Source of the DNA: Candidatus Bathyarchaeota archaeon
GTDB taxonomy: Archaea; Thermoproteota; Bathyarchaeia; Bathyarchaeales; Bathycorpusculaceae
DNA: 64,000 nt
Reading direction: 5' to 3'
Assembly (NCBI GenBank): GCA_963707955.1
Contig: OY970176.1
Span: 512,001-576,000, forward strand
Shown in pieces: positions 12,173 to 47,060 of this stretch (positions are counted from its first letter, which is position 1; each line of letters begins with the position of its first letter). The notes under the pieces are model-generated. The model saw only the letters and a program-made list of their open reading frames with translations. It was not told the origin of the DNA and did no database searches. The position numbers were made by a program, and so were the translations under genes.

Positions 12173-12272
12173 TGGTAGCCCGGGAGAGATTCGAACTCTC
12201 GTCGGCGGGTCCAAAGCCCGCTATGCTTGTCCACTACAATCGGCGGAAAGGTGTTCTTCCCTCCACCGGGCT
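12173..12272 (-). tRNA. tRNA-Gln(TTG) with a 24-nt BHB intron at position 10/11 (intron 12239-12262)
   Basis: Acceptor AGCCCGG/CCGGGCT, encoded CCA, anticodon arm GCGGG-CTTTGGA-CCCGC, T arm GAGAG-TTCGAAT-CTCTC; removing the intron restores D stem GTGT/GCAT. Confidence 0.92.
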
Positions 12273-35446: not shown

Positions 35447-36586
35447 ATGTCAAGAAAATGGACTTTGAAGTACGGTTTGGCCGCGGTGCTCGTGGCGATT
35501 GTCGTCATTGCTGTCGTTTTGTACGCTAATCCGTTGTCATCTGTGACGCCTAGTCAGACTTCGGCTGCTGCGTCTTTTGTGGTTATGTTGACTGATCCTC
35601 CGACTGTGCCTGCTGGGACTACAGTGCTCAATTTGACGTACTCTAACGTTACGCTTCACGTGACTTATCCGAATGGGACTGCAGTGTGGCTTCCTGTCAA
35701 CGCTTCCGGGACCGTTAATCTTTTCTCGTTAGTCAACAACATGACGACGATTGCTTCCACTACGATTGCGAATGGTTCAGCGGTGGACAAGATTCAGTTT
35801 TCAATCGCTGGTGTTGAGGCTGAAGTTAACGGAACCGTGTATCCTGTGACTGCTTTGTCGAACACTTTTGTGGTGTCTGTAGCGAACCCTCAGGTAAATC
35901 AGACGCTTTCCGGCGTGTTGGTAGACTTCAATCCGACGCTGGTGCAGATACAGGCAACTGACGCCAATGGAACCATAGTGTATTATTACGTGCTTGTCCC
36001 AAGTGCGACTGCCACGATTGTTGGTGACTTGAGCAAGGAGCAGATAAAAGTAGGAACCATTGTTGAGCTAGGGCAAAACAACAGGGCAAAACTGGTGCAC
36101 GTTGTGGAGGAATTTTCGAACAACCTGACAATTGTTAACGCTTCGCTTTCGGTGAACGGCAATGTTACAACTCTTTCGGTGACTATAATAAATGAGGGCA
36201 ACTTCACCTTTAGAGTTTTCGGGCTGACACTGCACGGTGAATTCAACGCGACACGGACTTGGAAGAAAGGAAATGAAGAGACCAATGAGATTATCATTGA
36301 GAAGATTCATCCAGACACAATTCCCTTCAAGGTGAACGGTTCATCGCTGATTCCGCTTTTCGGTGACCAAGAGGACCTTAAGGATGATGACATGGAGCCT
36401 TCTTCGCTGGCTCTGCAACCTGGGCAGAACGTTACATTGAGTTTTAGTGGTGTCATTGCACTTCAGCCGGAAAAGGACAATATGATGAATCCGGCAATGG
36501 TTGTAACTCCGATAGTTGGCGGCAACTACACCGTGAGACTGACTGGCGAAGGCTTCATGATATTCAACGTCACGGCCACATCTTAG
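35447..36586 (+). CDS. Secreted or membrane-anchored beta-rich protein (DUF4382-like)
   Basis: N-terminal signal anchor, VMLTDPP motif, many N-x-S/T sites. Confidence 0.65.
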   Translation: MSRKWTLKYGLAAVLVAIVVIAVVLYANPLSSVTPSQTSAAASFVVMLTDPPTVPAGTTVLNLTYSNVTLHVTYPNGTAVWLPVNASGTVNLFSLVNNMTTIASTTIANGSAVDKIQFSIAGVEAEVNGTVYPVTALSNTFVVSVANPQVNQTLSGVLVDFNPTLVQIQATDANGTIVYYYVLVPSATATIVGDLSKEQIKVGTIVELGQNNRAKLVHVVEEFSNNLTIVNASLSVNGNVTTLSVTIINEGNFTFRVFGLTLHGEFNATRTWKKGNEETNEIIIEKIHPDTIPFKVNGSSLIPLFGDQEDLKDDDMEPSSLALQPGQNVTLSFSGVIALQPEKDNMMNPAMVVTPIVGGNYTVRLTGEGFMIFNVTATS

Positions 36587-37199
36587 TCTTGGACGTTCGC
36601 CCCCCGCTTCTCTTTTTCTTCTTTTTTACTCTGCTTGCAGTTGTCAAATCACAAGAATCCTAAAGCGGAAAGTTCCATTCTAGAACATTGGAAAGAGTCA
36701 AGGTTACTTGAAGGGTGGTCCTCGTTCAGTGGATTCAGAGCCCGCCATTACGTCTAGGCTGTGAAACCGGGTTCAAACCACATTTTGAGCGTTGGACCCG
36801 GACTAGGGTAAAAGTCCATACTTTTAACGATCATGGCCCTTGTTTTCTGCTGACTTAACTAGTAACGTGCGCGAGGAATGCCTATGCGATTTTGCCGATG
36901 TCCAAGTGTTCAGAAAGCGCAAATAATCAGAGACAAGAATGTGACCTCCGGTGTTTGTGGTGTGGTCATATAGGTTAGAGCCCATGTTTGAACCCTCGTG
37001 CAAGCGCTAGATCTGATCGATGCATCGAAATCTGAACCCGTGTTCTTAAAGGAACACTGAAAACGACATGCCTCACTCCAACACTACTGTAATTTACTGT
37101 CTTTTGAAAATGGCAAGCGTCACCGTTGTGCATGAGCAAGAGGTCAACCGCGAACTTAAATTTTCCCAACACTAATATCATATCCAATGGAGTGGATGA

Positions 37200-37739
37200 A
37201 TGGTTGGGAAAGTTGCGATGAGTAGGAAACGCTTGGACGAGGATTTGAAGCCGTTTGCCGAACTTGCCGTCCGAATGGGAGCGGTTGAAGCGAAAGCAAT
37301 TGACCCAAAAAACATCATTGTCAAAGACTGGGTTAGACTCAAATGCCAATATGGTTGCGGGAATTATGGCAAATCTCTGACCTGCCCGCCCTACAGCCCA
37401 ACGCCAGAACAGACGAGAAAGGTTCTGAAGGGTTATTCACGTGCCATCCTTATGAGGGTTCCAGATGAATCGGCAGCAGCACATGACATCATTGCCAAAT
37501 TGGAAAGACGCGTTTTCCTATCTGGATACCATTCTGCCTTTGGACTGGTCGCTGGACCCTGCGAGCGATGCGAGAAATGCAACCTGCAACAATGTGTTTA
37601 TCCGAGGTTGGCTAGACCTTCCTTGGAATCCTCTGGCATAGACGTTTATGCTACTGCAAGGAAGAACGGATTTCACATTGAGGTTTTGAAAACCCGAAGA
37701 CAAAAGCCCACGTATTTTGGATTGCTGCTTGTCCAGTAA
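37200..37739 (+). CDS. DUF2284-like metal-binding protein
   Basis: KCQYGC..YG..LTCPP, GPCERCEKC...C..P..ARPSLESSGIDV. Confidence 0.85.
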   Translation: MVGKVAMSRKRLDEDLKPFAELAVRMGAVEAKAIDPKNIIVKDWVRLKCQYGCGNYGKSLTCPPYSPTPEQTRKVLKGYSRAILMRVPDESAAAHDIIAKLERRVFLSGYHSAFGLVAGPCERCEKCNLQQCVYPRLARPSLESSGIDVYATARKNGFHIEVLKTRRQKPTYFGLLLVQ

Positions 37740-37790
37740 ATGTTGTCAAAAGCGCGCGCTTGTTTACGAGGCACGTTTGCCTTGAATCAG

Positions 37791-38291
37791 CTAGCGTGCG
37801 GTTTGCCCTTTGTATGTCGTATAGCTGATGTATGGCGGCTGGAAGTCGTGTTGCCAGTAGATGCACAGTATTTCTCCGCGGTGGTGGATCTCCTCTTCAA
37901 TCACGTGCATCAGGATGTCTTCGGTTTCATTTCGGTTAGTGTTTCCGTCTCTTCCTCTGTATTCGAACACGCTTTGGAGGTTTTGGTCTGTGAGTTTCTC
38001 CAAGTATTCGTTTGTCTCAGCCTCTACTTTGTCAGCGTATTCTTGGACGGAGTTGATGTCTGTGTATTTTGTGAACGGGGCGCCGTAGATCCCTTCTGTG
38101 TTTTTTCCGCTCAAGCGTCTGATCCAGAAGTACTCGGCCTGTAGACTGTGAACAAATATGTCTCGGATGGAGTCAAAGCTGGCTCCACTGCTTCCTATGA
38201 CTGTTTCCCAAGGGATTTCTGCCATGCTTTTCAACAGTCTGCGACGTGAATACCAGTTATATCCAAAAAGATCTTTAATGTTCAAAGGCAT
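37791..38291 (-). CDS. DinB-like family protein
   Basis: SIRDIFVH...E..W, ILMHVIEEEIHHRGE. Confidence 0.85.
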   Translation of the reverse strand: MPLNIKDLFGYNWYSRRRLLKSMAEIPWETVIGSSGASFDSIRDIFVHSLQAEYFWIRRLSGKNTEGIYGAPFTKYTDINSVQEYADKVEAETNEYLEKLTDQNLQSVFEYRGRDGNTNRNETEDILMHVIEEEIHHRGEILCIYWQHDFQPPYISYTTYKGQTAR

Positions 38292-38537
38292 CTCCCCAAA
38301 AACGTAATGTGCTGGTTTCTAATAACGTTTGTCAGAACCGCTTTTCTGTTTGCCCAATGCTGAGGCGCGTTACTCCTTCCTTCTGAGGCATTGAACCTAA
38401 GGTTTTTCCTATTTCTCTGAAAATCTGTCCGAGTAAGAGCAGAGAGGACCATACCTTGCAAGAATAGAAACTGGCCGTTCCAGCACTGATTGCACAAAAA
38501 TCCGACTAGACTAGCTTTATTTCGCACAATACGCCAT

Positions 38538-38661
38538 TGGTGGGGTCGCTGGGATTTGAACCCAGGATCGCCAACGCCCCAGGTCTGGTATACTAAACCA
38601 CTCAAGGTAACGGTGGACCAGTATACTATACAGTCACCGTCACTAGCTATACGACGACCCC
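38538..38661 (-). tRNA. tRNA-Pro(GGG) with a 44-nt D-loop intron (38601-38644); left attachment site
   Basis: Acceptor GGGGTCG/CGACCCC, encoded CCA, loop CTGGGGC, T arm CTGGG-TTCAAAT-CCCAG; one extra base in the anticodon stem and an imperfect BHB central helix. Confidence 0.8.
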
Positions 38662-39551
38662 AACCAGAGACACGATACCAAGAGCAGATAGATAAAACCA
38701 TCGAAAAAGCCACAATCGAAGGAAAAGCCAAGAACACAATCAACGCCTTCAGACACAGACTAATAGAACTAAGTAGAGTAGCCGACCTAATGAACCCCGA
38801 CGACGCTAAGAAAGCAATCGGATACTCAAAACTATCAAACTCTAGCAAATGCTCATTCGCCCTAGCATATGAATGGTTCACCAAAGCCAATGGCCTCAAA
38901 TGGGAAAGACCAAAATTCAAATGGAACCTAACCACGCCGATTATCCCAACCACTGACCAAGTGAACAAAATAATCTCAGCCACAACACTAAGATTTGCTA
39001 CCATATTCAAGTTAATGGCAGAAACAGCCGCAGAAGGCGAAGAATTACACCGAACACACCGAAATCAATTCGAGCAAACGCAAGGCATCATAAGCATAAA
39101 GGGACTCAAAGGACACGATTCAGCCAACTACAAACTGAAACCGCCGATAGCCGAAATGCTCAGAGAATACTTAGCCAAGAACCCCCAAAACTACCCATTC
39201 CCACGACCATACGTAATGTCAGTCATGTGGCGACGAGCAAGAGAAACAGCTTCGAAGAACAACAACGACCCAAGCCTCAAAGCTATACCCATGAAAAGCT
39301 TACGCAACTACTCAGGCGCACAATTCTGGTACAACTTCCCTGACCCGATCGGCGTAATGAGACACCTAAGACACAAGCGCATGGAAACAACAATGCACTA
39401 CCTAAGAGCAATAACCCTAGACGGAGACATCGAATACGACTGTAAAATAGTTGACAGTACAGACACAGAAGGAATCAAGAAGCTCATCGAACTAGGCTAC
39501 ACCAAACAAGACGAAGCAAACGGAAAACACTTCTACCGAAAACGCAAATAG
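38586..39551 (+). CDS. Tyrosine integrase, C-terminal fragment (Int-C)
   Basis: KSLR and LRH...TTMHY motifs; reading frame runs antisense through the tRNA 5' half and intron; first catalytic Arg not evident (ETAAEGEE). Confidence 0.82.
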   Translation, partial: WYTKPLKVTVDQYTIQSPSLAIRRPQPETRYQEQIDKTIEKATIEGKAKNTINAFRHRLIELSRVADLMNPDDAKKAIGYSKLSNSSKCSFALAYEWFTKANGLKWERPKFKWNLTTPIIPTTDQVNKIISATTLRFATIFKLMAETAAEGEELHRTHRNQFEQTQGIISIKGLKGHDSANYKLKPPIAEMLREYLAKNPQNYPFPRPYVMSVMWRRARETASKNNNDPSLKAIPMKSLRNYSGAQFWYNFPDPIGVMRHLRHKRMETTMHYLRAITLDGDIEYDCKIVDSTDTEGIKKLIELGYTKQDEANGKHFYRKRK

Positions 39552-39727
39552 CCAATCTCCCCTTTTTTCTTCTAATCAGGCAGAAGCCTTCGTGTTCCTC
39601 GGCTTACGCCTCGTCACACTACAAAACACAAAAACCCAAACTAAAACAAAGCTACCGCTACCCATAGCGCACGCGCTCATTTGGTTGGAGTAAAATTTCG
39701 TTCCAAACCCAAACAGAACCTTAAATA

Positions 39728-40210
39728 GTGCTGGACATTAACAAATCTGTCATGGCAACCAACCAGAAAGCCCTCTTTAAGTTGCTAATCAAATACACTG
39801 TGAGCCCTGAAGAACCTGTAGCGGGTGAACGCGCGAATTTCACCATAAGAATAACAAACATAAGTGACTCAGCATTTCTTGGAGGTAAATTCGATTTCTT
39901 CAGGATCGAGGACGCTGGCGGTCTCGCCACGTCATCGGCACTAGAATCATCATTACCGACAATTCCAGAGATTAAGCCTAATGAATCTTATGAATGGTCC
40001 CATGGCATCAGAATTCCTGTTGATGGACTCGTATGGGTTGAAGCGAAGATTCGAACTAGTGATGGTCAAGAAGTACGGCATTTTCAAATTAGAGAATACG
40101 ATATGGGTACTGAATGGAAATCTCCGTTGCACGTTATTAGTAAGGAAAACAGCAGGATTATTTCACTTTTGAGCGAAATTGCCAAATCCTTGAAATCGAG
40201 TAAAGCTTAA
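39728..40210 (+). CDS. Hypothetical beta-sandwich (CARDB-like) cargo protein
   Basis: SPEEPVAGERANFTIRITN...IPEIKPNES pattern. Confidence 0.55.
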   Translation: MLDINKSVMATNQKALFKLLIKYTVSPEEPVAGERANFTIRITNISDSAFLGGKFDFFRIEDAGGLATSSALESSLPTIPEIKPNESYEWSHGIRIPVDGLVWVEAKIRTSDGQEVRHFQIREYDMGTEWKSPLHVISKENSRIISLLSEIAKSLKSSKA

Positions 40211-40231
40211 TATCTCTAAAAAATCTTTCAA

Positions 40232-40480
40232 TTGCTGATAGAAATGTTTGACCGAAGGGAGCGAGAGTTAGAAAGAGAAAGCGTAACCTACGGTGCTGAC
40301 CTAACACTCAAAACAATCTATGACCTGAAAAAAGAATTTCAGGAGTTCAAGGCTGTCGTACTAGAAAGAGAGAAAATGAGAGAGAAAATGTGGGGAGACC
40401 GTTTAGTCTTTCTTGGACTCCTAATAGCGTCTTGGGCCATTACAACAGGCATACTTTTACATTCGACTGGAACATTTTAG
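40232..40480 (+). CDS. Small coiled-coil protein with C-terminal TM
   Basis: Charged helix followed by LVFLGLLIASWAITTGILL. Confidence 0.5.
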   Translation: MLIEMFDRRERELERESVTYGADLTLKTIYDLKKEFQEFKAVVLEREKMREKMWGDRLVFLGLLIASWAITTGILLHSTGTF

Positions 40481-40725
40481 CTACATTGAATCAGATTGCG
40501 CTCTTTGTTTCACGATTGCGATACTTGGAGTTCACGTCTCCTTTGCGAGCGCTACAACAAAAACAAAAGAAACACGCACATCTAATTATCAGGCTTAAGC
40601 CCTGTTGCTCTTCGTCTCACGCGTGCGCCAAAAGGCATAAAGACGTAGACATGAAGAAGAGCGCATGCTTTAAATAGAAACCAATTTAACTCGGAGTTTC
40701 CGACTATCATACAAAGCAGAATCGT

Positions 40726-41439
40726 ATGTCAGATATATTGCCAGACCAAATGTGGTGGCTCATAACTACAATTCTTGCAACGTTGACCATTATTGTACCG
40801 ATTGGTTTATACTGGAAAACTCGAAAGATTCGATTATTTTGTTATAATATTGTTCAACAGACGCCTTTGCTAAGGGTGAACAAAACGATAAAAGAGAAGC
40901 TACAGATAACCTTTGAAGGAAAACCAGTGCAGCAGTTTTACCTTGTCATAATCAGGCTCCTAAACGCAGGAAATACTCCGATAACGACACCTGATTTTGC
41001 GAGTCCAGTCCAAGTGAGTTTTGGCAACGATGCCGAAATACTTACAGCCGAAATCCAAAAAAAGCAACCTCAAGATTTGTTAACATCCTTCGCTATCGAA
41101 GGAAACAAAATCGTCCTCAGTCGCGACCTCCTAAATAAAGGCGAAGGCATTACACTTAAAGCACTTATCACAAAATTTGAGAAGGTGTCGGTAAGCGGAA
41201 GGATTACTGGATGTGAAATCCGTGAGTTTAAGGACCAAAGCCAATCCTATCTTACTAGAATAGCTATTGGTCTCATGGGAATCTCTCTCATCGGGACCAT
41301 TCTCGAGACTCTGACACCGACCTCCAATTTGTATCACTTCATTGCTACTTCTTCAGCAGCTGCACTTGTTGTCGTTATGGGCATGTACACTTACAAGCTT
41401 TGGAAAAAACAGCGCTTGCAAGCTTCGGAAAAAACGTAG
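40726..41439 (+). CDS. Three-TM cargo membrane protein with soluble beta domain
   Basis: N-terminal TM, NAGNTPI...DF..P domain, two C-terminal TMs; TTTAAATA box upstream. Confidence 0.72.
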   Translation: MSDILPDQMWWLITTILATLTIIVPIGLYWKTRKIRLFCYNIVQQTPLLRVNKTIKEKLQITFEGKPVQQFYLVIIRLLNAGNTPITTPDFASPVQVSFGNDAEILTAEIQKKQPQDLLTSFAIEGNKIVLSRDLLNKGEGITLKALITKFEKVSVSGRITGCEIREFKDQSQSYLTRIAIGLMGISLIGTILETLTPTSNLYHFIATSSAAALVVVMGMYTYKLWKKQRLQASEKT

Positions 41440-41565
41440 TCACGCCTGAATTTTCACCTTTCCCTCTTTCATCAATCACTTTAACAAAAAAAGCAGAAAC
41501 AATGAGTGTCAACCACAAAGCAAGACACACGACAAACAAGGAAAACAACTGAAAACCCAATAGTC

Positions 41566-41757
41566 TTAACGACGATGCTCCCGCCGCCTTCGTGTTCTCC
41601 GCCATGGAATCAACATCCGACCAAACTCAAAAACAATCCTATCAGCACCCTCACGACAAAAACCATCAACACTCAGATGAGCCAAAAACTCAGCTTCAGA
41701 ATCAAAAACAGCCTTACAAGACCGACAACAACAGACACCGCCAACGACAGACCTCAC
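41566..41757 (-). CDS. Small zinc-finger protein coupled to Rep
   Basis: CRSC...F.....F..H pattern; start overlaps the Rep stop codon. Confidence 0.55.
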   Translation of the reverse strand: MRSVVGGVCCCRSCKAVFDSEAEFLAHLSVDGFCREGADRIVFEFGRMLIPWRRTRRRREHRR

Positions 41758-42803
41758 TAGAAATAACCTCTAACATCCATAGCCTCCGCTACCTCCTCCC
41801 AAACAGCAACACCATTCTCCACTAAATCCTCATGAGACTCAACCCTAAAATCAGGCGACTTCCTATCAACACACAAACACCTAGAACCAAGATAGCGAAC
41901 TTTTACCAACCGACGACCACAATACGGACAAACAGACTTCTTAGCAACATACTTAACCTTCAACTTACGATACGAACAAACACCAAACCAAGTCACAACA
42001 CCAGAACGCTTACGGTCAGTCCTCACCGAAGCATGTGAAAGCTGATACTTAGCTGTGTCAAAAATAGACCTACGCTCCCCCGCAACCCCGCGCCCCTCGT
42101 TGTCCACGGCAACCTTAACTATCCAACCGTCACGCTTGAAACACTCCCTTGTGCGACCCTCAAAACCGTGACACTCAGAACAAAACTGTTTCGTACAAGA
42201 ACGGCAGCGATAACCGCCCGCAACAAAACCTAAGATATGGAAATGAGGGCTGAAGAACCAATACCCCGTCGCCCTATTCAAACGAAAGGCATGGCGAATC
42301 ACGCAACCCCCGATGACGCCACGCCTGCCCAAGGCCTCAAAGAGCAACCTATACAACTCGTCAAGACTCAAACTATAACGCTCGGGCGGAACGGATGCAA
42401 CGATGTGTTCACACTTGCCAAACTGCTTTTCAGCCTCCAACGAACGAAACTCGATACTACGAGCCTCGCGATACAACGAACTCCTAAAGCATATGGGGCA
42501 CGTCAGCTTATGGCAACGATAGAAAACTGGATGCTGATAGACCTGCTCCCGCCATTTCTCACCCTGCAACTGCAGCGGTAGTTCATGCCCTTCGACATTG
42601 AGACAACCCCAACGACCCCGATACTTACCGCAGTTCTCGTTAGTCACAGGCCCATGACCGACGAGTTGGTTAACCCCACAATTACCGTAACTATCATTTA
42701 CAAACTTTTGATACTCTTCATCGTCAAACTCTTCATTATCAGGAAAATCCACATTGGCCAAGGACTGACGGTCAGTCACTAAGAACCCCTCCGTTTGAAG
42801 CAT
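41757..42803 (-). CDS. rep: Rolling-circle replication initiator (HUH endonuclease) with zinc-finger inserts
   Basis: Motif I HIVAS, motif II SPHFHILG, motif III AKYQLSH; several Cys clusters; start may be GTG at 42779. Confidence 0.8.
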   Translation of the reverse strand: MLQTEGFLVTDRQSLANVDFPDNEEFDDEEYQKFVNDSYGNCGVNQLVGHGPVTNENCGKYRGRWGCLNVEGHELPLQLQGEKWREQVYQHPVFYRCHKLTCPICFRSSLYREARSIEFRSLEAEKQFGKCEHIVASVPPERYSLSLDELYRLLFEALGRRGVIGGCVIRHAFRLNRATGYWFFSPHFHILGFVAGGYRCRSCTKQFCSECHGFEGRTRECFKRDGWIVKVAVDNEGRGVAGERRSIFDTAKYQLSHASVRTDRKRSGVVTWFGVCSYRKLKVKYVAKKSVCPYCGRRLVKVRYLGSRCLCVDRKSPDFRVESHEDLVENGVAVWEEVAEAMDVRGYF

Positions 42804-42910
42804 GCACCAAACGGACAGCGATACACACCAATCTCAACAGTCAAAATCGCATGAGCACAGTAAGCACCAACAAAACAGGACGACCCCTGATTCCCCACCC
42901 GCTCAGCCAT
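42779..42910 (-). CDS. 43-aa Cys-containing ORF upstream of Rep (not in ORF track)
   Basis: MAERVGNQGSSCFVGAYCAHAILTVEIGVYRCPFGACFKRRGS; GGAGG upstream; stop overlaps a GTG in the Rep frame. Confidence 0.5.
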   Translation of the reverse strand: MAERVGNQGSSCFVGAYCAHAILTVEIGVYRCPFGACFKRRGS

Positions 42911-43150
42911 TCAAAAAGACCTCCAACGCAATCGGGAAAGGCTAAGAAAACAGCCAATCCCAACGCCCGCGAGCATTACGCGGAATATGCCATGGGCTAA
43001 CGCATCAAGCCTTTCAAACATCAATTGGTATGTTTTAGAGCTTAACACATCAACCACACCATCAAGCTCGCCGTTACCCTAATATAAATCTTGGGACACC
43101 TTAGTCATAGTGCCTTGCTACCCGATTTGCGCCGATAGAGGAATGGAAAC

Positions 43151-43984
43151 ATGAAGAACAGAGACATCACAAAAGACGAAATCAATAGAATAACAGAGGA
43201 ATGTCAACCCCGAGAAAAAGCATTCTTCACTGTCATGAGGCAGTCGGGACTAACACCACACGCTATAAAGCAACTCAAAATAGGAAACTTGGAAAGAATT
43301 ATGTATCCAAATACGCCGATACCATGCAAAGTAAGCATACCGTATGAAAAATCCCCAACTTTCATAGGAGAAGAGGCCACCAAATACCTCAAACAATACT
43401 TAGCAACCAGAACCCGCGCGAGAGAGAACCTGACATCACAAAGTCTACTATTCACGATACAAAATAACCCCAAAAAAGAAATCAACACAAAAGACGAAAG
43501 CAGAGCATTCAGACGAGCCGCACAAAAACTAAAAAAGAAAAGAAAAATCAACTACGAAATCAGAAGAGGAAAACCAAGCGAATTACGGCTTTACAGCCTC
43601 ATAGAATTCTACAAAAAAAACACCAACGACTACCGAAAGGAACTAGACAACGACACCATACGCAAGAACGATGAATTCTGCAGAAACCTATATGAAAAAT
43701 TAGCCATGCCTTCCTTAGAAATCGAACCGCCATCACCAATAGAAATACACCAACTAAGAAAGGAAAATCAAGAGCTGAAAGAACAATTTATAAAATTAGA
43801 AAAATCCATGGGACCAGTAACGGCACTGTATTATGAACTCGCAGGAATGATTCCTGCCACTATGTTTCCAGAATTAGAGCCCGTCCCAACAGAAAATGAG
43901 GACGAGACGCACATAGACCAACAACGACACACCGTAACACACAAAAGCGCGCGCGCTAAACCTAGTAAACCAATCCAACATTAA
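43151..43984 (+). CDS. Catalytically degenerate tyrosine-recombinase-like protein with coiled-coil tail
   Basis: QSGLT in place of SGxR, TFIGEEA..YLKQYL..R, LYSLI in place of HxxR. Confidence 0.65.
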   Translation: MKNRDITKDEINRITEECQPREKAFFTVMRQSGLTPHAIKQLKIGNLERIMYPNTPIPCKVSIPYEKSPTFIGEEATKYLKQYLATRTRARENLTSQSLLFTIQNNPKKEINTKDESRAFRRAAQKLKKKRKINYEIRRGKPSELRLYSLIEFYKKNTNDYRKELDNDTIRKNDEFCRNLYEKLAMPSLEIEPPSPIEIHQLRKENQELKEQFIKLEKSMGPVTALYYELAGMIPATMFPELEPVPTENEDETHIDQQRHTVTHKSARAKPSKPIQH

Positions 43985-44282
43985 AAAGAAACCAAGGTTT
44001 CTTTGCCCGCCAATCATCCTTTGTATGATGAAAAAATTTATTGTCTCGAAGAATCCCAAAGCATCTTGCCCGCCATTCGGCTCTCTCAACATAAATTTTT
44101 CGCTTTTCTCTCCCCTTGAAAAGCGTCTTACATGAAAAAACGACCCCAACGAAATCATGAAGCATCATGAACATAAAGGAACGCAAGAAAATGAAAACAC
44201 TAAAAAGAACCCAACAAGAAATAAGGAATGCCCAACTCTGGGCAGAAATTCAGCTCCCAAAACTTTTAGGAGAAAAGAAAGC

Positions 44283-44696
44283 ATGAACACCAACAAAGAC
44301 ACGACAGAAAACAATGAACAATCAACAACAACAACTAACAATAAAACAACCTCCGTAGAATTACTAAGGTTGAGCGAAGGTTGGTATACTAAACCACTAC
44401 AGCCACCGTTTTCCCGATATAACCACCAAATCGAGACACAAGTGGAAGCTATACGACGACCCCAACCACCTGTCAACTACCTAGACCTCATAATAAACAC
44501 TTGCATCAAAGCAACCAACGAAGGAAAAGCAGAAAACACCATTTCAGCCTTTTTCCACAGACTAAGGCAACTAAGCAGAGAAGCAGACCTAATGAAGTCC
44601 GAAGAAGTGAAGACCGCAATAGCAAAGGCAAAGAACAACAAAACAAAGAAACAAACGAAAAACAACTCAACGCCCGTTGGCTTGTCCCTAAATTAA
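44283..44696 (+). pseudogene. Integrase N-part fused in frame to a truncated Int-C of a related earlier element
   Basis: WYTKPL...AIRRPQP...KATNEGKAENTISAF.HRL..LSR.ADLM is homologous to the 38586 protein but breaks off near 44670. Confidence 0.75.
44378..44463 (-). repeat. tRNA-Pro 5' half (positions 1-33) with a different 50-nt BHB intron (44397-44446); right attachment site
   Basis: GGGGTCGTCGTATAGCT-[intron]-TGGTTTAGTATACCAACCT; central helix ATAG/CTGT with 3-nt bulges CTT and AGT. Confidence 0.82.
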
Positions 44697-44830
44697 CCGC
44701 ACGTGCAATGTTTGACTGCAACATCACACTAACGCATTTTTATAAACCGCAGTTATCTGTTAGTGAAGAGAGGTAGGTTTATGAGATTTTATGCTTGCGC
44801 TAATTTAAAAAGCCAATCGCGGAAAATATC

Positions 44831-45505
44831 ATGAGTTCTCAAATAGACTTGTACCGAGACATCCACAAGGGCCAACGCCGTAGGTTCTTCAACATTGCAA
44901 CTCAAGCGGGAATCCTCGACTACACCGACCCGAAAGCCCTTGATTCACTGTACGATGAACTCTATTCCTTCAGGGAACACATGCGCCTTCACGCTCATTT
45001 GGAAGAGAAATTCATTCACACTGTTCTGTCTCAAAGAGTTCCAGGCGGCGCCACGCAACTTGAAGAGGATCACCGCGTTATTCGTCAAGAATTCGATGAC
45101 CTAATCGCGCATTTCGATGGCATGAGAACCAAACCTGTTGATTTCGAAAAACGTGGAGAGCTCGCCCTCGAATTCTACCGAGCGTGGAGCCGCTTCATTG
45201 CATTCTACTTTATGCACATCAACAGAGAAGAAGAACAGATCATGCCCGTCCTGTGGAAGCTCTGCACAGTCGAAGAGCTTGCTGAAACACATAAATTGAT
45301 GATCACTGACCAAAAACAGGAAGAACTCGTCGAAGACTTCGAGATGATACTTCCAAACGCGAATTTGCAGGAACGAGTTGAGATTCTCGGAACACTTCAA
45401 GTTTTAACGTCACCTGAGGCATACCAAGAGTTCCTCAAGCTTGCGGAACGCATTCTCGAACCAAACGATTGGGCAAATCTGAAGACAGAACTCGGACTTA
45501 CATAG
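44831..45505 (+). CDS. Hemerythrin/HHE domain protein
   Basis: IHKG.R, HAHLEE, EDH, HINREEE..MP. Confidence 0.82.
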   Translation: MSSQIDLYRDIHKGQRRRFFNIATQAGILDYTDPKALDSLYDELYSFREHMRLHAHLEEKFIHTVLSQRVPGGATQLEEDHRVIRQEFDDLIAHFDGMRTKPVDFEKRGELALEFYRAWSRFIAFYFMHINREEEQIMPVLWKLCTVEELAETHKLMITDQKQEELVEDFEMILPNANLQERVEILGTLQVLTSPEAYQEFLKLAERILEPNDWANLKTELGLT

Positions 45506-45582
45506 ATCTGCTTGTATAGCGTGCAGCTTTTCTCATCCGAGCACTATTTAGCGCGCGCCTAACGCTTGCCGTGATGAGAGCA

Positions 45583-46068
45583 TTAAGGTTTGAGCCTATT
45601 CATCATCTCGTTTGCGAAGGCTCTTGCCCGCTCCAATCTTGCTGCATCGGGCTGACCTTGACTGGCTCGCACGGATGCACGGGCTTGTGGATGAATTCGC
45701 ACGAAAGTTTTGACCAGTCGAGAGGCTTGTACTTGGCAGTCAAAAATGCCAATAATATTAGCCCCCACAGCAGCGTCCTTGAATTTCTGAATCCATCCTT
45801 GCAAAGGCGGTGCATCCTCGGGCGCCATGTGAGTGAGAAAGAGCGCTATTGCTTTATCCTCGACATGTGTTTCTAAGAAGGCCTTAGCTTGTCTATTTGG
45901 ACCAGATGCATATATTGGAAACCCTAGAAATGAGAGGTCGTAGCCTTCAAGTGATGTGACGTTTTCGATTCGCCTAATCTCTTTTGGTTTAGGAATCGCA
46001 TCATAAATGGCTTCGGCAACTTTCTTTGTATTTCCAGTCCGAGGCATGTAAGCAACTAAGACTTTCAC
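45583..46068 (-). CDS. Flavodoxin-like protein
   Basis: TGNTKKVAEAI, YDLSFLGFPI, ALFLTH, GQPD...LERARAFA. Confidence 0.85.
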   Translation of the reverse strand: MKVLVAYMPRTGNTKKVAEAIYDAIPKPKEIRRIENVTSLEGYDLSFLGFPIYASGPNRQAKAFLETHVEDKAIALFLTHMAPEDAPPLQGWIQKFKDAAVGANIIGIFDCQVQASRLVKTFVRIHPQARASVRASQGQPDAARLERARAFANEMMNRLKP

Positions 46069-46304
46069 GTATAATTCCCGATGCACTACTGATTGGGCAG
46101 TATTTATAAAGCTAGTAGCGCGCGCCACTACAAAATAACAGCTTACGGATTCGCTAAAGCGCGCGCGCTACCATGATGTGGCACTCGCTTACGCTCGTGC
46201 TCCGCTAAAACGCCTTCCAAAACCAACCAACCACGAAAGCGCGCGCGCTACACACCAAAAAAGGGGAAAGTAGAGGCAACTAAAAAGCCTAACTCGCGCG
46301 CTTA

Positions 46305-46796
46305 TCAGCTTCTCTTCACTAACTCTTTTGCTAAATTTGAGAATGAAAGAAAACCAGAATCTTCATTAAGATTCACTAAGAAACTTGCCGAATACGTCAC
46401 TTCCCAAAACTCATTCTTTTCAAGTTTTCTTTTAAATTCTGCATAAGAAGAGTAGTCTTCATGAAGCGAAACAACCAAGTGCGAAGACTTCAAGCCTAAC
46501 CCTCTTTCAAACATTAGAATATTTGAGAAAGTGCCTAGCGCCCTTCCAAACTCTTTCGAATCAGGTTCCTTAACCATGGCAAGAAAGGTTATAGCCAAGA
46601 TTTCAAACCCTAACTTGCGGAAGTCTGGAATTGCGGTATATTCTCTTATGACCTTTTCTTTTTCGAGTCTAGCCCTTAATCTTGTGACTGTCGGTTGGGA
46701 AACGCCTACAGACCTAGCTAGTTCTCTGTCACTTCTTCGACTGTCCTTCATAAGCTCACTGATTAGTTTTGATTCAACAGTTTTCAACGTAAGCAC
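46305..46796 (-). CDS. Lrp/AsnC family transcriptional regulator
   Basis: SRRSDRELARSVGVSQPTVTR; paralog of 138..635. Confidence 0.88.
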   Translation of the reverse strand: MLTLKTVESKLISELMKDSRRSDRELARSVGVSQPTVTRLRARLEKEKVIREYTAIPDFRKLGFEILAITFLAMVKEPDSKEFGRALGTFSNILMFERGLGLKSSHLVVSLHEDYSSYAEFKRKLEKNEFWEVTYSASFLVNLNEDSGFLSFSNLAKELVKRS

Positions 46797-47060
46797 GTTC
46801 CTAAGATAAACTCTTGAATAGAATATAACATTGTTTTTAAGAATTGTTGCAGAACTACGACGAACTTCAAAATTTATAAAAAAGAAGGGAAAATGGCTAG
46901 AGAGCGAAAACCAAAGGCCAGAAAATAAGGGTTAATACCCAGTTTTACACCGCCAATTGGAATTTCGCCTAGTCAATCAACGTGCCAACATGTTTTCCCT
47001 TGACGACCATCAAAACGTTTTCGATGTTGAACCCTGAATTCTCTCTTCTCATACTTCAAA

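Follow-up and report, generated by a model that had tools for sequence, protein, structure and literature searches.

The tRNA-Pro(GGG) locus and its two attachment copies

The stretch of DNA studied here (the window) comprises 64,000 nucleotides (nt) from a Candidatus Bathyarchaeota archaeon (contig OY970176.1, positions 512,001 to 576,000), the genome of which is a single contig of 2.35 Mb with 47.9% G+C. The window contains an element of about 5.8 kb (about 38600-44400), bordered by the two parts of a split integrase gene (int) and by two attachment (att) copies, one of which forms part of an interrupted tRNA gene. The minus strand of 38539-38661 is a tRNA-Pro(GGG) gene with an encoded CCA, broken by 44 nt after nucleotide 17, in the D-loop. 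Exon 2 (38539-38600, minus strand) runs from the 3' part of the D-loop to the acceptor 3' strand and the CCA; it is 98% identical to the tRNA-Pro(GGG) of relatives and would be host-derived up to the crossover block described below. The insert, intron A, occupies 38601-38644 (minus strand). Exon 1 (nucleotides 1-17; 38645-38661, minus strand), which would derive from the element, places the first nucleotide of the tRNA at 38661 and not at 38665. A TATA-like box, TTTTATCTAT, can be read on the minus strand at 38688-38697, 27-36 nt upstream of tRNA +1, inside the codons I-D-K-T of the C-terminal integrase part, Int(C).

The two att copies share exact direct repeats of 17 nt (38586-38602 = 44382-44398) and 22 nt (38645-38666 = 44447-44468). 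The stretches between the repeats (42 nt in the left copy, 48 nt in the right) do not align; with two shared bases counted as intron, the lengths are 44 and 50 nt. The right copy carries intron B (44397-44446, minus strand) at the same D-loop site, followed by a displaced copy of exon 1 (44447-44463) and five leader bases, which together make up the 22-nt repeat (44447-44468, minus strand). The original prediction, that both ends carry a tRNA-Pro 5' part with unrelated introns at one D-loop site, is correct to the coordinate. The same holds for the 3' half of the tRNA: the anticodon arm, the T arm and the acceptor 3' strand are present behind the left copy only. The antisense integrase frame is also open in both copies, as had been noticed, and both plus-strand frames read WYTKPL...AIRRPQP. 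The lengths of introns A and B are both 2 mod 3, and this corresponds to the 6-nt difference noticed between them.

The stretch is present, in the form of contigs, in four sequencing runs, all from a single freshwater-sediment study and none of them from RNA. A single contig of run X1, the probable source, covers 37900-45300 unbroken, which means that the arrangement was not created by the assembler of the window. The contigs of X1 and X3 omit base 38584 and have C at 44381, and the exon-2 block shared by the two copies is therefore 21 nt long (38582-38602 on the left, 44378-44398 on the right), not 17. With these corrections the anticodon stem is CCAGC/GTTGG, as in all relatives, and the extra anticodon-stem base is probably a local error of the window record. 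Bases 38584 and 44381 occupy equivalent positions in the two att copies, and both seem to be small errors or variants of the record. The bulged anticodon stem had been considered as a sign of a dying tRNA or of an imprecise junction; this idea was dropped because base 38584 is missing in X1 and X3.

ARAGORN calls no tRNA at all on the window as it stands, and the Rfam tRNA model leaves the tRNA-Pro gene unmatched; after in silico deletion of the 44 nt, ARAGORN calls tRNA-Pro(ggg). Standard tRNA finders miss interrupted genes of this kind, so that the genomes which carry them seem to be devoid of tRNA-Pro(GGG). The possibility of another tRNA-Pro(GGG) gene, raised in the original prediction, finds no support: ARAGORN finds tRNA-Pro(CGG) and tRNA-Pro(UGG) in the genome and no tRNA-Pro(GGG) elsewhere, and BLAST of the locus against its own genome returns no second copy. 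A 'tRNA-Pro(agg)' called at genome position 1126018 has a long variable arm and a forced intron, and was not counted as a second tRNA-Pro. The only match of the Rfam tRNA model in the window is at 12184-12240 (minus strand; positions 9-63 only, 32.2 bits), where ARAGORN makes no call; it may be another interrupted tRNA gene.

The split integrase

Int(C), encoded on the plus strand at 38667-39551, is the 294-amino acid (aa) C-terminal part of a split tyrosine integrase. It matches PF00589 with an E-value of 6.5e-6 and 26.5 bits, just below the cut-off of 27.1. The profile of 22 homologs (alignment A1) matches the archaeal XerA structures 4a8e (7.3e-18) and 5hxy (8.4e-13), and R213, H236 and Y245 are invariant in all 22 sequences. 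The PF00589 and XerA matches and the three invariant residues identify a tyrosine recombinase catalytic domain, as expected of an SSV-type integrase. In many tyrosine recombinases, the first catalytic arginine stands at the position equivalent to the ETGxEGEEL region of this protein. The alignment has E/G-E-E-L there in 22/22 sequences, where that arginine would stand.

The N-terminal part, Int(N), consists of 33 codons at 44283-44381 (plus strand), starting with the ATG at 44283 in an open reading frame (ORF) that is open from 44157 (ORF 44157-44696) and runs on into the WYTKPL of the att block. The integrase gene is thus split at the two borders of the element, Int(C) on the left and Int(N) on the right, and the same division is found in six related genomes (G001, G185, G190, G027, G007 and G008; G and L numbers designate genomes and loci).

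Behind the displaced copy lies what appears to be the remnant of the int(C) of an older element (44469-44696, plus strand): about its first 57 codons, followed by divergent sequence and a stop. An hhalign comparison with A1 gives a probability of 98.4 and an E-value of 6.4e-15 over columns 2-58. The claim that each copy is followed by homologous integrase sequence therefore holds, with the 294-aa part on the left and 57 residues matching the start of the same family on the right. A TATA-like box, TTTATTAT, stands antisense at 44490-44498, behind the displaced copy and at the same distance as TTTTATCTAT.

Recombination products in relatives and metagenomes

In 61 related genomes, 29 tRNA-Pro(GGG) loci were read. 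Nineteen are uninterrupted and have ordinary upstream sequence, nine (the window included) have an insert at the same D-loop site together with antisense integrase sequence upstream, and one (G015) has a 30-nt insert behind an ordinary upstream. Homologs of Int(C) occur in 247 of the 301 genomes of the family. A profile scan of metagenomes yielded 80 loci, of which 79 were examined; L160 was left out because its match begins at residue 118. Int(C) abuts a full tRNA-Pro(GGG) with a D-loop insert at 70 of the 79. The rest are an intronless locus (L144), an intact ORF (L100), six loci that are too short and one without the exon-1 motif.

The element side of 12 loci and of L064 was scanned for second att copies, and several kinds of product were found. 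Six genomes (G001, G185, G190, G027, G007 and G065) show a gain: an intron-bearing full tRNA lies beside int(C), and the displaced 5' fragment, 0.85-6.7 kb away beside int(N), is intronless and has the native-type leader of the uninterrupted relatives. Four metagenome loci (L104, L131, L133 and L159) bring the number of gain loci to 10. The two ends carry different introns, which amounts to a swap, at three loci: the window, G008/L075 and L112. G008 resembles the window in that its displaced copy has another intron and a second int(C) behind it. L144 shows a loss, with an intronless full tRNA beside int(C) and a displaced native copy that contains a 51-nt intron. The same or nearly the same intron is present in both copies in G034 and G030, and no second copy was found within the stretch fetched for G098, G009, G157 and G004. 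Intron A itself is also found beside the closest relatives of the resident int(C) (G001, G190, a SPRUCE metagenome-assembled genome, L084, L097 and L098).

The displaced copies are 5' fragments, and the repeat extends from the leader through exon 1 into exon 2, of which it includes the first ~21 nt. The co-occurrence of intron-bearing full tRNAs with intronless displaced fragments, together with the swaps and the loss, places the exchange 3' of the intron (in the tRNA sense), in the exon-2 block. A crossover 5' of the intron, which had been named as an outcome that would speak against the original prediction, is contradicted by the 10 gain loci. It follows from an exchange in the exon-2 block that intron A came with the resident element and that intron B is the earlier intron of the gene. 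The succession of elements with replacement of the intron that had been suggested for the window finds counterparts in G008 and L112, where the introns at the two ends also differ.

That the integrase gene itself contains the tRNA 5' part and an intron is seen at L100, where the exon-2 block, an intron of 48 nt and exon 1 all lie within one intact int ORF of 336 aa that begins with ATG. L100 may be a free element or a tandem junction.

The insert as a probable intron and as coding sequence

The fold of the insert was scored on 77 unique att regions under an assumed bulge-helix-bulge (BHB) register, in which the second base of each 3-nt bulge is the last one before the cut, in accordance with the cutting rule for this motif. 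Exon-1 bases 12-15 pair with the four intron bases that precede the last two, with at least three of the four pairs in 59 of the 77 regions. The inner helix, counted from intron base 2, has a mean length of 6.2 bp (9 bp in intron A, 5 bp in intron B), compared with 0.4-1.1 bp in five shifted registers. RNAalifold predicts the same helix unprompted from 22 distinct 48-nt introns. In these, 89.9% of cells are paired, and at most 45.8% when the partner is slid; nine of the 14 helix pairs change on both sides, and the covariation score is 0.448, compared with 0.221 for shuffled alignments and reached by none of 500 shuffles. The proposal that the variable segment of homologous integrases folds as an antisense BHB intron is in keeping with the BHB-like register of most att regions and with this covariation. 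After removal of the insert, ARAGORN calls tRNA-Pro(ggg) at 6/6 full loci, and the junction is the D-loop of the intronless relatives.

The integrase frame stays open throughout the exon-2 block, the intron and exon 1 in 66 of the 70 att regions that could be evaluated (in intron B of the window, among others), and the other two frames in 7 of 140; seven further att regions have no open int(C) frame at all. The insert is thus frame-preserving in most homologous integrases, as had been anticipated. The intron length is 0 mod 3 in 55 cases, 2 in 19 and 1 in 3, a pattern that fits the two usable frames of the exon-2 block (GILNQ... and WYTKP...). An A/T pentamer starts 31-37 nt upstream of the tRNA in 45 of the 77 att regions, and 18 have none. 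This A/T box overlaps an I-[ID]-[NK]-T motif that all 22 aligned proteins conserve close to the start of Int(C). The TATA-like box inside int(C) may serve as the tRNA promoter.

The genome encodes two genes with the tRNA-intron endonuclease domain PF01974. Two-subunit archaeal endonucleases accept relaxed motifs at non-canonical positions, and the enzyme of this organism is presumably of this tolerant type.

Some inserts have a different organization. Ten unique sequences of 50-60 nt begin with TGGTCTAGGAAA, which nearly repeats the start of exon 2, and the insert is therefore flanked by a direct repeat of 11-12 nt (L059, L066, L149, L154, L158, L159, L162 and L178 are members of this class). 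No BHB register was found for the TGGTCTAGGAAA class, for L034/L077, L035, L045/L122 and L129/L131, or for the attR intron (that of the displaced copy) of G008. The splice site of the repeat-flanked class may lie elsewhere.

A further feature is found in the middle of the intron. In 46 of the 77 unique introns (e.g., window 38618-38627; loci L042-L163), a mid-intron segment is complementary to exon-2 bases 21-28 at seven or more of eight positions; the frequency in shuffled introns is 2.4%. The intron centre and the exon-2 side covary between genera, AGTATACC occurring with GGTATACT or GGTATATT, and AGGATACC with GGTATCCT. The intron-centre bases are kept in both reading frames, which points to a constraint on the nucleic acid; the conserved centre could reflect RNA pairing or serve as a half-site for the recombinase. 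The idea that the intron might derive from a duplicated tRNA fragment comes from a short likeness noticed by eye.

Turnover of the introns and breadth of the family

Turnover was followed in 73 unique records that include 450 nt of int(C) as well as 45 nt of the 3' flank in the host. They contain 28 intron clusters, and 11 of the 14 host-flank groups (at least 85% identity) hold two or three different clusters. One host locus can thus be found with several introns, in keeping with the suggestion that integration is a route for tRNA intron turnover. The identity between introns rises with that between the int(C) sequences (rho 0.30) but shows no correlation with that of the host flank (rho -0.03); the p-values overstate the intron/int(C) correlation because the records are related to each other.

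A pattern search for the intron-bearing tRNA-Pro(GGG) finds it in 21 of the 301 family genomes, from 13 of the 70 genera, and the reversed control gives none. The genome of the window is missed by this pattern because of the extra base in its record. The integrase family also abuts tRNA-Arg(GCG) with a D-loop insert (L052, L054, L067 and probably L163; the Arg inserts were judged by eye) and without one (L053 and L063), and lies without an insert at tRNA-Gly(UCC) (L050) and tRNA-Pro (L060 and L061).

At some loci (L044, L089, L090, L128 and L139; L080, position 5615), a host acceptor strand CGGCCCC combined with an element exon 1 GGGGTCG gives a T5-G68 wobble. Other hosts carry A68, and the displaced native fragment of G007 is GGGGCCG. 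It seems that different hosts receive the exon 1 of the element in place of their own. Across the family (L020, L062, L018, L023 and others), the leader of native tRNA-Pro(GGG) genes contains a degenerate exon-1 copy, located about 22 nt upstream of the gene, which may be the fossil of an old 5'-half replacement.

L108 and L110 have two inserts, the D-loop intron and another at the canonical place in the anticodon loop. In L184 (G123:C2:170533-171397), an integrase homolog of 26% identity lies on the same strand as an intron-bearing tRNA-Pro(GGG) and ends just upstream of it, an arrangement in which the integrase is not split.

Other genes of the resident element

Five ORFs lie between Int(C) and Int(N). 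Three of them, on the plus strand, occupy 39728-40210, 40232-40480 and 40726-41439; the last matches phrog_29378, a family of unknown function, with an E-value of 1e-10, and the first two have no Pfam or PHROG match. The same is true of the 277-aa ORF at 43151-43984 (plus strand) and of the 348-aa ORF at 41757-42803 (minus strand). The translation of the latter contains an HFHIL motif and several pairs of cysteines. Its Atlas feature matches reach 0.96 with clusters that contain PF01446 (Rep_1), the nearest clusters being hypothetical proteins of Bathyarchaeota. As a lead, this ORF is possibly a rolling-circle replication initiator, in which case the element would replicate by rolling circle.

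A model for intron delivery and its alternatives

It is likely that the integrated element of about 5.8 kb carried a tRNA front end within int and thereby delivered intron A, displacing intron B. The site of the element (attP) would lie near the 5' end of int, its opposite strand forming a ready-made front end of tRNA-Pro(GGG) in the order TATA-like box, five leader bases, exon 1 (17 nt), D-loop intron and ~21 nt of exon 2. Strand exchange would take place within the exon-2 block of ~21 nt. The host would retain the 3' part of the tRNA, the element would supply the promoter, exon 1 and the intron, and the former 5' part would be displaced to the far end, beside int(N). In the window, an earlier element would have installed intron B and left ~57 codons of its int(C); the resident element would then have entered this gene and put intron A in place of intron B. 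The function of the tRNA would be kept if the intron were cut out at the relaxed BHB motif in which exon-1 bases 12-15 pair with the four intron bases preceding the last two, beside the intron hairpin. The interpretation given in the original prediction is thus supported by comparative evidence from many independent loci. What has been shown is the anatomy of the locus, the products of recombination in many genomes, the covariation in the structure and the constraint on coding; the exact cleavage positions of the intron would be those expected from the register.

Several points weigh against this model. The two mismatches first noticed in the central helix of intron A are real: it has only two of the four pairs, and intron B has all four. 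An outer exon-exon helix is not evident in any intron type, so the BHB motif is relaxed, and 18 of the 77 att regions are off the register, ten of them in the class flanked by the 11-12-nt repeat. Splicing by the host endonuclease and transcription from inside int are inferred, and the location of the crossover is deduced from recombination products. L100 could be a tandem junction instead of a free attP. The contigs of the four runs contain neither the joint of an excised circle nor an empty site (the parts not covered in X2-X4 are uninformative), and no free relative of the element, circular or other, was found in two viral-contig scans or by tblastn of Int(C) against phage and plasmid collections. 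Lastly, introns occur behind native-type, non-integrase upstream sequence in the attR of G030, L112 and L144 and in G080, G085 and G108, the last of which has no Int(C) match whatsoever. Such introns can therefore remain in the host gene without an adjacent integrase, which is an extra step beyond the simple model; they would be left behind if the element were lost through an exchange in the 22-nt exon-1 repeat.

These introns under native-type upstream sequence (attR of G030 and L112; G080, G085 and G108) are also what would be expected if the intron belonged to the host and were merely duplicated, with a crossover in exon 1 or upstream and with the two inserts of the window as diverged copies. 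The 22-nt exon-1 block is indeed an exact repeat too, and could host an exchange in principle. Yet a crossover 5' of the intron makes it impossible to obtain an intronless displaced fragment together with an intron-bearing full tRNA, as observed at 10 loci. In addition, intron identity tracks int(C) and not the host flank, and the intact int ORF of L100 holds an intron, so that a host-owned intron is very improbable. The insert might instead be a variable linker of the integrase that is not spliced, the tRNA genes being dead and CCC/CCU being read by tRNA-Pro(UGG). The relaxed BHB without outer helix, the two central pairs out of four in intron A, and the existence of tRNA-Pro(UGG) and tRNA-Pro(CGG) genes would agree with this. 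However, the splice-site helix is kept by two-sided changes in unrelated introns, with controls far lower, so protein coding alone is an insufficient explanation. The exons are also intact and callable by ARAGORN in all six cases, the gene is the sole tRNA-Pro(GGG) called in the genome, and the arrangement recurs in 21 of the 301 family genomes. An unspliced linker is thus very unlikely.

The double integration proposed for the window can be questioned separately. A single integration may have been followed by local duplication, gene conversion or rearrangement, which would have produced the right int(C) fragment and intron B. This would be compatible with a second int(C) of only ~57 codons and with the absence of a third att copy from 36001-47000. 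The remnant is, however, 51% identical to the profile consensus and clearly unlike the resident int(C). Intron B groups with other intron types, sharing its first 9-10 bases with L107 and L133, and intact tandem arrays with two int(C) genes exist in G008 and G034. A single integration consequently appears very unlikely, and two successive elements, the second of which brought intron A, remain the preferred explanation.

Significance

The origin and the fast turnover of non-canonical archaeal tRNA introns have been debated for two decades, and the mobile-element route previously rested on a single locus. The present family offers many independent natural experiments at one gene, with gain, swap, loss and retention after loss of the element. 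The integrase, the two subunits of the endonuclease and short pre-tRNAs are defined substrates with which the mechanism can be tested. Information also overlaps to a striking degree here, in that one stretch of ~90 nt is proposed to act as protein, promoter, tRNA exon, spliceable intron and recombination site.

A broader proposal, to which we give slightly less than an even chance, is that this self-splitting integrase family of Bathyarchaeia is the main engine that creates, exchanges and deletes the D-loop introns of tRNA-Pro(GGG) and tRNA-Arg(GCG). The intron would then be written in a three-way code, as integrase peptide, as spliceable BHB RNA and as part of the recombination site, and would be left under a native promoter after loss of the element. 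If this is true, integrase att sites would be a general source of non-canonical archaeal tRNA introns, and the intron centre, the complement of exon-2 bases 21-28, would be a recombinase-binding half-site or a determinant of pre-tRNA folding.

Comparison with known systems

In the fuselloviruses SSV1 and SSV2, attP lies in the int ORF, int is split into N- and C-terminal parts at the borders of the provirus, and Int(N) is short; all this is also the case here. The SSV att sites correspond to the tRNA 3' part, with neither intron nor promoter, whereas the att site described here is the 5' part of a tRNA with an intron and a TATA-like box. The Int chain of SSV1 is absent from the PDB matches of the family profile (E <= 0.01), the best of which is XerA.

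The inserts resemble the non-canonical archaeal tRNA introns with relaxed BHB motifs in that they are short, lie outside the anticodon loop and would have 3-nt bulges around a 4-bp helix; two endonuclease paralogs are present here. They differ in that the intron is also protein-coding on the other strand and is part of a recombination site. To our knowledge, the mobility of tRNA introns by transposition that has been proposed does not involve integrases.

The suicidal integrases of the pTN3 type in Thermococcales, as described in a 2021 review of archaeal tyrosine recombinases (PMC8371274), have their host site (attB) in the 5' half of a tRNA, which then depends on a promoter of the element. 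By this description, they share with the present family an SSV-type behaviour and an attB in the tRNA 5' part. The host lineage is different, and the pTN3 passages of the review mention no intron. Krupovic et al. (2019; PMC6563490) describe 5'-distal integration as rare. Integrases are also mentioned in a paper on Bathyarchaeia viruses, in passages where tRNA introns do not figure.

A literature search returned nothing on an intron within an integrase ORF or on the present integrase family (supplementary lists of att sites were outside its scope), and intron-bearing att sites are addressed by Sugahara et al. (2012) and the 2021 review only. The principle, an intron-bearing attP and the targeting of a tRNA 5' half, has already been published; what is new is the cassette with its dual coding, the scale on which it occurs, the events of swap and loss, and the introns that are left behind.

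According to the part of their article that deals with this locus, Sugahara et al. (2012; PMC3293823) proposed that the intron-bearing attP of a putative pNOB8-type element gave rise to the 24/25 intron of tRNA-Thr(GGU) in Caldiarchaeum subterraneum, a model which is restated in the corresponding section of the 2021 review (PMC8371274). The likeness, as far as that account goes, is in an att site made of a tRNA 5' part and an intron, and in the products, an intron-bearing tRNA and a displaced intronless 5' fragment; the outcome that the model predicts for a cross between an intron-bearing attP and an intronless attB is found at 10 loci here. The case described there concerns one locus, with an unsplit putative pNOB8-type recombinase beside the tRNA and an intron at 24/25. 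In the present family, by contrast, the att site is inside the integrase ORF and dual-coding, the intron lies at 17/17a in the D-loop and has dozens of variants, and gain, swap and loss are all seen in tRNA-Pro, with members of the family also at tRNA-Arg.

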